Source: Coleofasciculus chthonoplastes F2-STO-03
GTDB lineage: Bacteria; Cyanobacteriota; Cyanobacteriia; Cyanobacteriales; Coleofasciculaceae
DNA: 31,619 nt
NCBI GenBank assembly: GCA_040222015.1
Contig: JAVJWO010000180.1
Location: forward strand, 1-31,619
Direction of reading: 5' to 3'
This document shows, piece by piece, positions 12,411 through 17,401 of the stretch; the first letter of the stretch is position 1; each line of letters opens with the position of its first letter. Below the pieces are notes generated by a model, which saw nothing but the letters and a program-made list of their open reading frames with translations, was not told the DNA's origin and did no database searches. A program made the position numbers and the translations under genes.

Positions 12411-12564
12411 TACAGCACTTTCCGCTCTTATGAGATAGGTTTGATCCCCCTAAATCCCCCTGCACGGGGGAGGAGAGAGGATGCGAGAGCTTTTGTTGCA
12501 TGGGGGAGGCGCTGGGGGTGAGGGCGATCCCCCTTCTCCCCACGGTCCGGAGTTGGGGTTAGGG
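12411..12564. repeat. Degenerate composite cyanobacterial repeat region (C-rich/G-rich palindromic units)
   Basis: CCCCCTAAATCCCCC..GGGGG, GGGGGTGAGGG and GGGGTTAGGG units between the convergent era and NACHT genes. Confidence 0.55.
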
Positions 12565-14781
12565 TAATAGTAAGGTGTCTTCTATTTCCTGTCGTACTTC
12601 CTGGCTGATGTAACAATCGCTTTTGAGGCAATCAACTAGCAGTTTATTGGCGTCGTAATACTGCTGTAATAGTTGCTTTTGTGCATCGCTGAATTGCCAG
12701 TCATGACCAATATTGCGATACTGAATCATTACGATTCTTAACTGCTCAGTCCAATCCCTACCGTTATCTTGCCACCATTGCTCTTTATCATTTTCTTCTG
12801 GGCTAGGAAGTTGATCTTTAAGTTTTTGAAGCGACTGTTTTAACTCAGGTTCGAGGGCGCGGGAGAGGGCGTGGTTGAGGGCGCGGTAGAGGGAGAGGTC
12901 GCGGGAGAGGTCGTGGGAGAGGAAGAGGGAGAGGTCGCGGGAGAGGAAGAGGGCGCGGGAAAGAGCGCGGGAGAGGTCGAGGTCGCGGGAGAGGTCGAGG
13001 TCGAGGGCGAAATAGAAAGCTCTAACAGCAGAGGGCTTGGAGGGAACTTCAACAGACAGTGATTTTTGATTGACCCAGGTGAGGAAACGCTGTAATTTCT
13101 CATCACTAGCTACCAATTTATCAATTATTTGCTTCATCTGCTGCACCAGTGTATCAGCATTCCGCATCATTCCAGCCGTCAGCAAAAACACCTCACGCCA
13201 ACGATTTTCCGTAATCTTACTGACCAACAAAGCAATATCAGATTTAGCCACAATTTCTCTAGCCGTAAAATACTCTTGAAACGTCAAATGAGAAAACGAA
13301 TAAATACCTCTCGCTCGTTCTACTAATAACCCATGATGGGCTTCAATCGATTTCAGAACCGCCTCACTGTCTAATAACAACGCATCTGGATCAGTTTGAG
13401 CATCGGGTAAATTCCGAATGTAATCAGCGATAGACTTTTCAATCTCTCTTTGCTTAAAGAAATACTCTCCCTGCTCAAACGTAGCAAAAGCAACTTCACT
13501 CAATAAATCTTCTTTACGCTGTACTGACAACTTTTTGTAAACCTGCTCTCGTACAATCCGTCGCTTCGCATCCCATTTCCGCAAAAGCGTATGAATGGCT
13601 CGATTGTACAATTCAGCCCGGTTAGCTGGAAATTCTCCAGAATCTTCAAATTCTATACACAGTAACGTCAATAGCAGCGGGTTGCTTGCCAATTCTTTGA
13701 TGGGTTCGTTATCTTCTAACTGTTCGATAAAATAGCCAGCTAAATCTAATTGTTTAGCCTGGAACCATTTTGTCGCAAATGTGCGAATCTGCTTATCGTC
13801 AAAATCATCAACCTCAACGTCTGTAAACTTTTCAAAGGTATATTCTCGTGCAGCAATCCGGCAAGTGATGACAAAGGTATTAGCATCATAGTCTTCGGTA
13901 AAGGCTTGAATCTGAGTTAAGACGCAATCAGCATCCTCTTCCCTAACTTCATCTAAGCCATCTAGCAGAATTAACCCTCTTCCGTGTTGAAGAATTGCAG
14001 AAACTTGAGTTTCGGTAACATTGCAGTTATCGAATATTTGATTAATATAGGTGGTCAGACTGGGCTGATTTTGAGTCTCGGCAAATTGCTTCAGCGTAAT
14101 AAAAATAGGAACTTTATCCGTCAAAACCTTAGATTTAGAACATTGAATCGCTAAATATTTGAGAAACGTTGTTTTTCCCGCACCCGGTTTACCTAACACC
14201 ATCAATTTGTCATATTTTTGGACGGCTTCTAGTCCTGGTATTCGTTCCTCTTTTACCTTGCTGAATCCCGGACGGTCAAAGCTTTCTGAGTCTAGATTAC
14301 AACCTTGCATCAATTCATTAATCGTTAACCGCCTAAGCCCAATAACTTTTTCTAGGATATTGACTTTGGTATAAATATCCTTCAATCCAATAGGTTGAGT
14401 CATATCCAGCACCTTCATTGTGCCGCACTGATTTTGAATGCTGGGTTTGATTTTCTGGCGTATTTCTTGCACCAGGGTATCAATCTCTACCTCATGAGTA
14501 GGAGTTTGAGGAGTTGAAGTTGGATGATAGGCTTGATACTTCTGGATGAGGAAGTCATGCAGCTTCCGCACCTTACCGGGACCTTTACCACCAATGCTGA
14601 ACTTTTTATAGACACCACTCATGCGAGTGCGAAAGGCATTATGAGAAATATAAATGGAGTCAGCTAAGTCTGATTCATTCCCTTGGCAACTAAAACGTGC
14701 CACAAATGCTTCTTTTTGTTCCAGGGAAAGGTCATAGTCGCGAGCAATTTGGGTCAGAAAGTCTTTGGTTAGCGGTTGCAT
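12559..14781 (-). CDS. NACHT (STAND) NTPase with N-terminal HTH-like region and C-terminal helical (NCH2-like) domain
   Basis: Walker [10 protein letters not shown], Walker [19 protein letters not shown] and [10 protein letters not shown]-terminal [29 protein letters not shown]-terminal [23 protein letters not shown] resembles an HTH. Confidence 0.92.
12853..13008 (-). repeat. In-frame 26 x 6-bp degenerate tandem array inside the NACHT gene
   Basis: 25 of 26 hexamers read NNC-CNC on the coding strand, encoding [52 protein letters not shown]. Confidence 0.9.
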
Positions 14782-14788
14782 GAGACGA

Positions 14789-14815
14789 ATGTTAGCTTAT
14801 GTTAGCTATGTTAGC
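14789..14815. promoter_or_regulatory. Triple direct repeat ATGTTAGC, putative operator
   Basis: Exact copies at 14789, 14799 and 14808, immediately upstream of the NACHT start codon (14781). Confidence 0.5.
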
Positions 14816-14886
14816 CTAAGTTTCAGCGTAATCTCTTAACTGCAACGGCGATAGTAGGAAGCAGTTGAGTTAAGAGGTTAATCGAC

Positions 14887-15066
14887 ATGACTAAACAACG
14901 GAACTTGAGTGCGGCTAAAATTATTATTGCTTTGCATGTTCTGCTGACGCCTGTGGTGCTGGTAACGGTTAGTTATTGGGTGATTAATTCGGAGTTTCAG
15001 GGGGTGATTCAATTGAAGCTAAACCGCGATGGGGGTGAAGTGTTGATTGATAGGCGTTCTAATTAA
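14887..15066 (+). CDS. Small (59 aa) single-pass membrane protein of unknown function, not in ORF track
   Basis: GAGG RBS at 14874-14877. MTKQRNLSAAKIIIALHVLLTPVVLVTVSYWVINSEFQGVIQLKLNRDGGEVLIDRRSN*: basic N-terminus, hydrophobic helix, beta-hairpin-like tail. Confidence 0.72.
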   Translation: MTKQRNLSAAKIIIALHVLLTPVVLVTVSYWVINSEFQGVIQLKLNRDGGEVLIDRRSN

Positions 15067-15084
15067 AAGAAAAATGGTGCGTGT

Positions 15085-15147
15085 GTAGGGGCGGGTTTCA
15101 CGACTATCTTTTTGGTTGCATCCAGATGTGACTAAACCCGCCCCTAC
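15085..15147. repeat. 63-bp REPIN/MITE-like element with perfect 14-bp terminal inverted repeats
   Basis: GTAGGGGCGGGTTT...AAACCCGCCCCTAC. Confidence 0.88.
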
Positions 15148-15303
15148 TTGACCTTTGATTTCGCTAGCTGGTCAGTTATAGTAATGGTGCGTTACGCTCC
15201 GCTAACGCACGATGGCGGCGTGACCCAACTAAAATAGGGCTTTGTTTGTAGTAAGCACAAAGCGTGCTTTAACGCATAGCTGGAGAGGGCTCAGGTTCCC
15301 TGA

Positions 15304-15576
15304 CTACGAACCTAATTAAAGACAATGATAGGGATAGGATAATGATACTAGAAATCGGGGAAGAATTGGACGCGATCGCGTGGCTTCAATTACTACTTGA
15401 TAGAGAAATGGTGCGTTACGCTCCGCTAACGCACCCTACGAACTTAATTAAATACAATGAGAGGGATGGGATAATGATACCAGAAATCGGGGAAGAATTG
15501 GACGCGATCGCGTGGAGTCAATTACTACTTGATAGAGAAATGGTGCGTTACGCTCCGCTAACGCACCCTACGAACT
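15304..15576. repeat. 132-bp tandem duplication, each unit with a HIP1 site and a GTGCGTTA..TAACGCAC palindrome
   Basis: CTACGAAC recurs at 15304, 15436 and 15568; the units are near-identical; a further palindrome copy lies at 15183-15210. Confidence 0.9.
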
Positions 15577-15686
15577 AAATCAAAGATTCTAGATAGGGAC
15601 TGCGCTCAACTTTCGTTCAATTCCTACTTGATAATTAAGCTGTTCGGCATTTAAACCTTAATGTCAAGCATCGCCAAATCCTATAT

Positions 15687-15784: not shown

Positions 15785-17401
15785 TTATCCAGAATTCAAT
15801 TCAGCCAAACCCAGCACTTCTTGCAACAGCCGTTGGTCTTCTAATTTTATCCGAAACCGTTCCTTTTCAATATCTCGAATCCAGCTTTGGCTTTTACCTG
15901 TCAATTGCGCCAAGTCGCGTTGACTGAGTTTGTTACGTTGTCTCGCCGCGATAACATCTGCGCCAGACAGTACAGAGGATGACTGGGATTTAGTCTTGCG
16001 TTTGGTTAATCGTACCTTGTTCGGCTCAACGGTAGTCAGCGCATGTTCCCATTCTGCTTTCAGTTCAAACCATAAAATCCGGGCTTTCATTAACAGGTTC
16101 CATTTGCCACGGGGCGCTGCATCCGTTAACCGTCTATTACTATTTCCATCTTGAATCCAAAACTCTAACGCCGCATCCGCATCGTCGGGGAGATCTCCTA
16201 ATTTCGCCCACATGGGTTGAATCTCTGGTAAATAGGTTACCGGATCAAACACAGGTTTGAGTCCATGATGACTGAGAACTTCTAAATCACTTTCAAATGT
16301 CCGCACTAAACGTTTCCGTTCATCTCGCTGGGAAGACGCCCGCAGGAGTTTGTCTTCTCCATACGCCACTCGCATTAATGTGGGTACGGTAATCCGTTGT
16401 CGTTTCCCAATTCGGGTTTTAAACAACAGCCACAACATCATCCGCGTCGCCCCTTGATGATGTTGCCAGTTACTCATCACGGCGCTGAGTAAACTTTGAG
16501 GCAGATTGCCATACTGATAGAAGGCGGTTTGGTTTTGACAGCCTCGCCTATTTAAGAAGTATTTTGCCCAAATTCCTGCCCTAATCCGAAAGGTTAAGCC
16601 AACTAAATGTTTATATCCCTGTTCGTCTTCTTGAAAATGGTGTTCAATTTGCTGAAGATGCCACAAGCGACTTTGGGGAATGCTAAATTCTGAGACGTTG
16701 CCTTGCTTTGACCAATGAGCGCCGATGCTAATTTGGCAGGGCTGCTGGGCAAGCTGTTTGATTAGACTTAATTTAGCCGCTTTACTCAAATCTGTGCGTT
16801 TCTCTAATCCTAAATAGTTCTCAATTTGCACATCGTTGACAGTAAACTCTTCTTGCCATGGTTTATCTAAGGCTGTGGCGTATGCAGCATATATTAAATG
16901 GAGACAGGTGGCTTTGATATCCATCGCCTCAAGCGTCGCCTGGGCTTCGTCAGCCGATAACGTATCAGTTGAGTCTGTATCAAATCTATCAGTTAGCCAG
17001 AAGTCCACTTGACCTTGACCTTGACGCACCTGGCGCTGATAACAAAATTTTCCAGATGCATCGGTGTGCCACGGGAGGGAAAGCCCCTGTGCCAATAGGT
17101 TGCACGCTTCCCAGATAACGATGGAGGAAGCAAAGGGATTGGTTTTGTCATTGGCAAATAAATCTGGGCTGGTGGGAGGTCTTTCTTTCAGCTTGTATCG
17201 TCCCTTTTTCCCGTGAGCGGGAACGGGAGAACTTATGGGACAGTGAATCACACATTGAGGTTCGGAATAATACCCTTCGCAGTTGTTACACAGATTTGGA
17301 TCAATCCACGTTTGGTTATCCTTGACTTTGATTGCACCCGTTGGACATTGGGTACGACAGATATCACACCCAGTACAACTTTGTGAGAGTTTGTAAGCCA
17401 T
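15785..17401 (-). CDS. cnfR: CnfR/PatB-type transcriptional regulator (N-terminal 2x[4Fe-4S] ferredoxin domain, C-terminal XRE-type HTH)
   Basis: CTGCDICRTQCP and CNNCEGYYSEPQCVIHCP clusters; TSPDLF..NPFAS.IVIWEACN block recalled from PatB; C-terminal ARQRNKLSQRDLAQLTGKSQSWIRDIE; 538 aa. Confidence 0.85.
   Translation of the reverse strand: MAYKLSQSCTGCDICRTQCPTGAIKVKDNQTWIDPNLCNNCEGYYSEPQCVIHCPISSPVPAHGKKGRYKLKERPPTSPDLFANDKTNPFASSIVIWEACNLLAQGLSLPWHTDASGKFCYQRQVRQGQGQVDFWLTDRFDTDSTDTLSADEAQATLEAMDIKATCLHLIYAAYATALDKPWQEEFTVNDVQIENYLGLEKRTDLSKAAKLSLIKQLAQQPCQISIGAHWSKQGNVSEFSIPQSRLWHLQQIEHHFQEDEQGYKHLVGLTFRIRAGIWAKYFLNRRGCQNQTAFYQYGNLPQSLLSAVMSNWQHHQGATRMMLWLLFKTRIGKRQRITVPTLMRVAYGEDKLLRASSQRDERKRLVRTFESDLEVLSHHGLKPVFDPVTYLPEIQPMWAKLGDLPDDADAALEFWIQDGNSNRRLTDAAPRGKWNLLMKARILWFELKAEWEHALTTVEPNKVRLTKRKTKSQSSSVLSGADVIAARQRNKLSQRDLAQLTGKSQSWIRDIEKERFRIKLEDQRLLQEVLGLAELNSG

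Follow-up and report, generated by a model that had tools for sequence, protein, structure and literature searches.

What is the output of a bacterial NACHT protein that carries no recognizable enzymatic domain? The question is raised by a divergent gene pair in Coleofasciculus chthonoplastes F2-STO-03, located in a 31,619-nucleotide stretch of contig JAVJWO010000180.1 that was analyzed at its full length and is referred to here as the window. A first-pass annotation of this DNA had proposed that the NACHT protein controls transcription of the small membrane-protein gene opposite to it. That idea is now partly supported, having gained what looks like an operator array between the two genes and a relative, XssQ, that has been tested experimentally. 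On the basis of the sequence comparisons described here, the NACHT protein probably acts as a transcription factor that responds to a signal and drives the divergent small gene, and we place the probability of this reading at about 0.6.

Architecture of the gene pair

The features of the locus are as follows, with the supporting evidence in parentheses.

12559–14781, minus strand: HTH-NACHT-NCH2 STAND protein, 740 amino acids (open reading frame and Pfam)
12562–12843, minus strand: NCH2 domain, residues 647–740 (Pfam)
12832–13026, minus strand: hypervariable segment, residues 586–650, candidate sensor (repeat analysis and identity among relatives)
13756–14205, minus strand: NACHT P-loop domain, residues 193–342 (Pfam; Walker A and Walker B intact)
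14521–14781, minus strand: LuxR/GerE-like HTH, residues 1–87, HTH_VMAP-M9-like (profile, Atlas and model)
14789–14826, plus strand: direct-repeat array, candidate operator (sequence, cross-genus alignment and gap p-distance)
14846–14855, plus strand: conserved box CGGCGATAGT, putative weak extended –10 of the small gene (cross-genus alignment)
14887–15066, plus strand: 59-residue predicted single-pass membrane protein with a C-terminal β-hairpin, unnamed family (homologues, dN/dS and AlphaFold)

As originally described, the two open reading frames diverge, with 105 nucleotides between them. The closest named relatives belong to Coleofasciculus. The cassette lies among housekeeping genes, namely era and a gene for a 4Fe-4S/HTH regulator identified with Pfam, and no defense island surrounds it in the window. 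The latter gene (15785–17401, minus strand) encodes 538 residues with an N-terminal 4Fe-4S dicluster domain and a C-terminal XRE HTH (Pfam), and adjoins the cassette in most relatives within the genus. We take its product to resemble the PatB/CnfR-type regulators.

The region 3' of the small gene is rich in repeats. A 14-nt inverted repeat occupies 15085–15147, palindromic elements and dispersed repeats are found within 15085–15650, and a 132-nt tandem duplication (15304–15567) gives rise to a 78-residue open reading frame at 15342–15578. Coverage of 15004–15211 is very deep in four RNA runs, as expected of a multi-copy repeat. These runs (X1–X4) were rejected as evidence for expression or habitat: their contigs cover 29–30 of 30 bins, long records included, and they may therefore be of DNA origin.

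The 59-residue protein

Purifying selection and the existence of relatives indicate that the small open reading frame is a real gene. The possibility raised at the outset, that it might have no homologues under purifying selection, is not borne out. Among 16 coding sequences, dN/dS relative to the window copy is 0.07–0.30 in 13 of 15 pairs, the other two being saturated, and the pooled value is 0.13–0.26. The additional alleles at codon positions 1, 2 and 3 number 53, 23 and 96, respectively. The gene is present in 14 of 61 related genomes and in 5 of 48 genera, its own genome counted. When 1.84 billion representatives were searched with a profile, 78 clusters of relatives emerged, which have in common a hydrophobic helix followed by the pattern [FY]xGxIxLxLGx[DE]GGxVxIDGR. 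Two phylum-wide profile searches gave 3 of 401 and 3 of 251 genomes, values that underestimate the range because only 14–25 candidates were scored in each.

The AlphaFold model (pLDDT 82.8) agrees with the fold first suggested for this protein, a hydrophobic helix with a β-hairpin tail: the predicted helix extends from residues 6 to 34, and the strands are formed by residues 40–46 and 49–55. The hydropathy peak of 2.27 falls at residues 10–28. The proposed ribosome-binding site is present as an RBS-like AAGAGG (14872–14877), but it is not conserved outside of the genus. Likewise, the gene is unannotated in the window, but its relatives do carry the NCBI label "hypothetical protein."

The small protein was compared with known families and folds, also as a candidate holin or type I toxin-like membrane toxin. 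It has no match in Pfam or PADLOC, none above the cut-off in NCBIfam, and no usable match in the Atlas; its model has no Foldseek match at E ≤ 0.001 in the PDB or viral libraries. No second copy was found in this genome by tblastn and HMM searches. In viral contigs, 82 pattern matches included no relatives of the protein, and in plasmids there was no match to one distant homologue that was used as the query. A search with a clade-B alignment, run without a positive control, gave 0 of 144 genomes in one family. A predicted four-copy complex scored 0.01. In amyloid systems of the BASS/HET-S kind, the N-terminus of the NLR and the C-terminus of an adjacent membrane effector carry the same motif. 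A link of this type was rejected here: the NACHT N-terminus is an all-helical HTH, and the small protein matches only its own gene in this genome.

The NACHT protein

Pfam matches NACHT to residues 193–342 (E 2.4e-16, 60.4 bits versus a cut-off of 26.7) and NCH2 to residues 647–740 (E 1.8e-41). The Walker A (GKPGAGKTT) and Walker B (DGLDE) motifs are both intact and conform to the signature of the NACHT-clade STAND NTPases, for which the accessible text of bioRxiv 2022.07.19.500537 gives D[GAS]hDE as the Walker B form. In keeping with the original description, Pfam finds no enzymatic domain within the 740 residues, and no TRADD-N, vWA or MoxR component in the window. Searches of PADLOC and NCBIfam for the named anti-phage NACHT systems gave no full-length match, only matches to the NTPase core: the PDC-S60 model covers residues 175–511, EruA scores 49.6 bits versus a cut-off of 1000, and DS8 scores 24.8 versus 790.

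Residues 586–650 form a low-complexity L/D/S/R repeat built on 6/12-nt units. In a comparison of nine relatives, the NACHT domain is 92–99% identical in eight, the HTH head is 68–78% identical in six, and the repeat segment is 5–26% identical in six.

The assignment of the N-terminus as an HTH, tentative at first, is upheld by three approaches. A profile of 14 N-termini matches GerE (E 1.7e-5), with LuxR-type response regulators next. The best Atlas match, which is a lead, is PF26355 HTH_VMAP-M9 with a score of 0.90. Finally, the AlphaFold model of the head shows five helices (pLDDT 92), with the recognition helix predicted at approximately residues 47–60. A Foldseek search with this model returned mostly HTH DNA-binding proteins among its best rows, none of which reached E ≤ 0.001. 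Taken together, the profiles and the model point to a DNA-binding HTH fused to a STAND module, as in the XssQ, MalT and AfsR regulators. The dN/dS value of the head, 0.42, is raised compared with 0.12–0.15 in the core, yet remains below 1; within the head, the recognition helix has a value of 0.20 versus 0.50 for the rest.

With a broader profile, the head was detected in 130 of the 260 genomes searched in the order. Two more proteins with the same HTH occur in this genome, and neither has a small partner. The same head is carried by a conserved HTH-NB-ARC clade of 430–475 residues, which has neither the array nor the small gene; copies occur in the window genome (G000:C14 7828–9147 and G000:C15 26641–27939) and at loci L073–L086. 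The G000:C15 copy lies upstream of what appears by eye to be a Ser/Thr kinase-like gene.

The intergenic gap

Two elements of the gap had been overlooked in the first-pass annotation, namely an array of direct repeats and a conserved box. The sequence ATGTTAGC occurs three times, at 14789, 14799 and 14808, and a fourth, degenerate copy, AAGTTTCAG, follows at 14818. The period is about 10 bp. None of 60 shuffles reached a three-copy chain of this kind. Tandem direct repeats upstream of the target are a feature of STAND regulators, and here they precede the small gene. Note that the automatic repeat caller missed arrays that could be recognized by eye.

The box at 14846–14855 has the family consensus TTGCGA.A.T. 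It can be read as TG-n-GACAGT, that is, as a putative weak extended –10 element. If so, the repeats would lie at about –40, –50, –60 and –70, and there would be no –35 element. A sigma-70 scan found no consensus promoter in the gap.

Among seven alleles from the genus, the p-distance of the gap is 0.053 versus a pS of 0.17–0.28 calculated from the first 520 codons, such that the gap is 3–5 times more conserved than synonymous sites. The element is held approximately 100 nt ahead of the small-gene ATG. In other genera its distance from the NACHT start ranges from 105 to 857 nt, and in Coleofasciculus the repeats begin 8 nt from that start. The element models scored no second copy in this genome. 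Two places, G000:C191 at ~4141 and G000:C216 at ~39400, have in common a ~45-nt sequence with TGTTAGCAAATGTTAGC, which is probably another repeat and is not scored by the element models. The inverted repeat at 14829–14880, which might form an RNA hairpin, is not conserved in other genera.

Recognition helix and repeat word

When the first variable position of the helix is Arg, the repeat word is ATGT[CT]AG, and when it is Ser, Thr, Gly or Asp, the word is AAGTCAG. The two agree at 35 of 38 loci, with three discordant and four further loci left out owing to ties or other residues. Mapped onto a tree built from the NACHT portion, this concordance is not significant, resting on two supported independent pairs, or four when all branches are counted. 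Within a more variable group, xY heads accompany AG[TC]TATCTC, and KK or KQ heads accompany TTCTAC-like words. At two loci, the small-gene family of the window occurs together with a Ser head and AAGTCAG, and thus the word tracks the head rather than the cargo. The variable helix positions presumably correspond to the base-contacting residues of NarL.

Linkage and the exchangeable slot

Homologues of the small gene are indeed linked to STAND genes, as had been anticipated. At 15 of 18 close-homologue loci, which include two near-duplicate pairs, an HTH-STAND gene diverges from the small gene. One of the three exceptions is a deletion locus that has lost the HTH, the gap and the small-gene start, and the other two loci end 370 and 465 nt upstream. 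Among the partners, one is an NB-ARC rather than a NACHT protein, another is interrupted by a stop at codon 6, and a third lacks its NTPase core through an in-frame loss. The neighbors of the cassette vary between genera and even inside the genus.

Several disrupted loci can be described individually. At L035 (4837–5895) the NTPase core is lost in frame and the HTH and NCH2 are left, and L131 shows a similar loss. A deletion at L036 (150–1891) runs through the HTH, the gap and the small-gene start, and L031 (251–1811) has a premature stop together with an internal deletion.

The generality of the layout was examined with 132 HTH loci, drawn from about 69 of 94 places in one search and 70 of 220 in another as best hits or hand-picked entries, de-duplicated; two more were dropped for their short upstream sequence. 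The unpublished genome G752 enters only the tally of the first search, and none of the conclusions depends on it. A slot was scored as filled when, no more than 450 nt away, there was a divergent ATG open reading frame of 40–110 residues that included a hydrophobic stretch, and the NTPase types were assigned with our own patterns. Filled slots were found at 35 of 52 HTH-NACHT loci, 4 of 49 HTH-NB-ARC loci and 6 of 31 others, against a background of 120 of 2393 large genes in this genome (5%). These loci are related and partly hand-picked from hit lists. The element model separates the first two classes similarly (35/52 versus 2/49), a circular result given that it was trained on the same loci.

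Across the order, at least eight unrelated families occupy the slot beside closely related NACHT cores. The membrane-type families have 17, 13 (that of the window), 6, 4, 4 and 2 members. Other occupants are nuclease-like, with three PD-(D/E)xK-like and two DUF559-like proteins, and one is a CyanoTRADDas_TM protein. At L147, L155 and L162, the array and box precede PD-(D/E)xK-like proteins of 209–217 residues rather than a membrane protein; for L155 the Pfam match has an E value of 0.0012, below the cut-off, and L147 is unmatched. A family-D small gene (L101, L152, L164 and L168) contains a second conserved overlapping frame of 40–43 residues beginning MAQSNR, which may be a mere shadow of codon conservation.

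A reverse test began from an 81-residue, two-helix family, of which 12 of 201 genomes contain 13 loci in all. In 11 of these the gene opposite encodes an NTPase that begins with an HTH-like region, mostly of another, XRE-like type. Pfam identified NACHT or AAA/nSTAND1 in all seven partners tested, and HTH_3 in two. The closest full plasmid relative (62%), carried by a named plasmid, has type I RM, Abi and TA genes as neighbors and faces a gene of the cassette kind across the origin. Four close NACHT paralogues lack both the element and the small gene. The layout is more general than was thought when the pair was first described.

That description had also put the two genes forward as a candidate sensor/effector module. 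They do not form a dedicated pair: the slot is exchangeable, and the distant 59-residue relatives have no STAND neighbor. Indeed, none of six such homologues, one of them with little upstream sequence, has a STAND gene opposite. One of these distant homologues (family A; L051 (L030)) precedes a sigma-70 r4 gene, and another lies opposite an 845-residue protein with, by eye, an HTH-like start. A family-B small gene lies upstream of a DUF1822 gene. The loci at which members of these two small-protein families stand beside other regulators are L135, L051 (L030) and L216.

Comparison with known systems

XssQ (Slr5058), encoded on pSYSM of Synechocystis PCC 6803, is an HTH-STAND activator, as shown by qPCR, RNA-seq and EMSA. 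According to the accessible part of that report (PMC8205485), it works with XssR/XssS and binds single or tandem short sites (AAGTTXXAC, by EMSA) upstream of its targets, which are polysaccharide genes. The NACHT protein of the window is 35% identical over residues 71–740 (E 7e-128) to the protein in the pSYSM record that we took to be XssQ from the order of the genes in the xss cluster, and both contain an HTH, NACHT and NCH2. The heads differ: that of XssQ appears XRE-like by eye and is matched by neither HTH model, whereas that of the window protein is LuxR-like. In addition, the window has one candidate target, the small membrane gene, and no adjacent two-component pair. Orthology was rejected, as the alignment starts at residue 71, the heads are unrelated by HMM, and the neighbors differ.

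A second parallel is provided by AfsR of Streptomyces and its target afsS, whose product, AfsS, is a small protein. The afsS promoter has a poor –35 and a suboptimal –10, and AfsR, named alongside MalT as a STAND activator, turns it on through direct repeats spaced by one helical turn (PMC10936776, accessible text). The likeness lies in a STAND protein with direct repeats at a weak promoter. In the same text, AfsR has a SARP head, an AP-ATPase-type NOD, a TPR sensor and two 11-bp repeats, whereas the window has a NACHT domain, three to four repeats at ~10 bp, a divergent layout and exchangeable membrane cargo.

The NACHT proteins surveyed by Kibby et al. (bioRxiv 2022.07.19.500537) have the same tripartite plan and NCH domain and are common in cyanobacteria. 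HTH and other transcription domains are counted there among the "adaptor" effectors, which may set off a response at the level of transcription. The accessible text names neither a target gene nor an operator, and no divergent small gene. The conflict modules of Kaur et al. (PMC8195603, PMC7159879) are echoed by the CyanoTRADDas_TM (PF20712) occupant and the HTH_VMAP-M9 (PF26355)-like head. The window differs in having no TRADD-N, vWA or MoxR, and the divergent cassette was not found in the available portions of those papers. Nor was it found in the literature searched, including the accessible text of PMC12267927; paywalled work and supplements lie outside that scope and may bear on novelty.

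Mechanism and alternatives

By analogy with XssQ and AfsR, the best reading of these comparisons is that the cassette works as those systems do, its regulator being a NACHT-clade STAND protein that is neither an XssQ orthologue nor a member of a named defense system. As in MalT, AfsR and XssQ, a ligand would meet the hypervariable C-terminal segment, and exchange of ADP for ATP would allow the protein to oligomerize. Several HTHs could then sit on the four repeats, one helical turn apart, and, when bound at about –40 to –70 of the weak promoter, would recruit RNA polymerase. That the small gene is activated by the NACHT protein is, in our judgment, quite probable. Because the repeats lie 8 nt from the NACHT start in Coleofasciculus, their occupation may also limit synthesis of the NACHT protein in that genus. 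The weakest step is the last, in which the output would most likely be a membrane-level response to conflict or stress, for example, growth arrest or permeabilization of the infected cell; this we hold only tentatively.

The alternative that survives best, itself improbable, casts the small protein as a membrane anchor, an inhibitor or a co-sensor that is regulated together with the NACHT protein and provides feedback on it, the true targets being elsewhere. The tight one-to-one linkage would suit such a role, as would the restraint of some STAND regulators by inhibitor proteins (PMC10936776, accessible text) and the several targets of XssQ (PMC8205485, likewise in part). It is difficult to reconcile with the variety of unrelated families found beside closely related NACHT cores, and the element models reveal no second site in this genome.

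A shade less probable is that the NACHT protein is an autoregulatory repressor, which would occupy the repeats, hold the two promoters silent, and come off when the signal arrives. In divergent regulator/target pairs the regulator is often a repressor. The closeness of the array to the NACHT start would fit, and a minus-strand TAnnnT (14851–14856) points at the repeats. The gap, however, offers no consensus promoter to shut off, the repeats lie upstream of the conserved box of the small gene rather than across its start, and both STAND regulators with experimental evidence, XssQ and AfsR, activate their targets.

Least probable is a direct role of the NACHT protein as an NLR defense effector, with the small gene hitchhiking on the same mobile unit and the repeats serving another factor: bacterial NACHT proteins do protect against phage (bioRxiv 2022.07.19.500537, accessible text), the defense models match the core weakly, and the HTH evolves faster than the core. 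Against this, HTH-NACHT is accompanied by the element and the small gene in one family after another, the repeat word shifts in all copies along with the helix residue, and conservation within the head is higher in the recognition helix than in the rest.

A role in defense?

Returning to the preferred reading, in which the NACHT protein activates the small gene, a defensive purpose for the cassette is conceivable at somewhat below even odds, and toxicity of the 59-residue protein is rather unlikely. Support for both is circumstantial. Counted in favor of a conflict role are the hypervariable segment, the fast-evolving head, the broken alleles, the CyanoTRADDas_TM and PD-(D/E)xK-like occupants, and the plasmid copy with its type I RM, Abi and TA neighbors. 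Counted against defense is that XssQ governs polysaccharide genes (PMC8205485, accessible text), and none of ten small partners, nor the small open reading frame of the window, has a PADLOC match. The boldest version, which taken as a whole we consider doubtful, is a widespread NLR circuit in multicellular cyanobacteria: a NACHT protein with a hypervariable sensor would oligomerize on the array, read through a helix/repeat code, and induce a plug-in effector. This would sometimes be a nuclease, but in most cases a membrane microprotein without annotation, by which the infected cell is arrested or killed.

Many cyanobacterial NACHT proteins have no enzymatic effector, and for these the cassette offers candidates for the output and the operator, together with a predicted specificity residue. 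A 105-bp fragment and a 59-residue protein suffice to make the question of output testable. The analysis also exposes several unnamed microprotein families that have one regulatory slot in common. Should the cargo prove toxic and phage-induced, this would be an NLR defense acting through gene activation. Should it not, many "immune-like" NACHT proteins would be transcription factors like XssQ.
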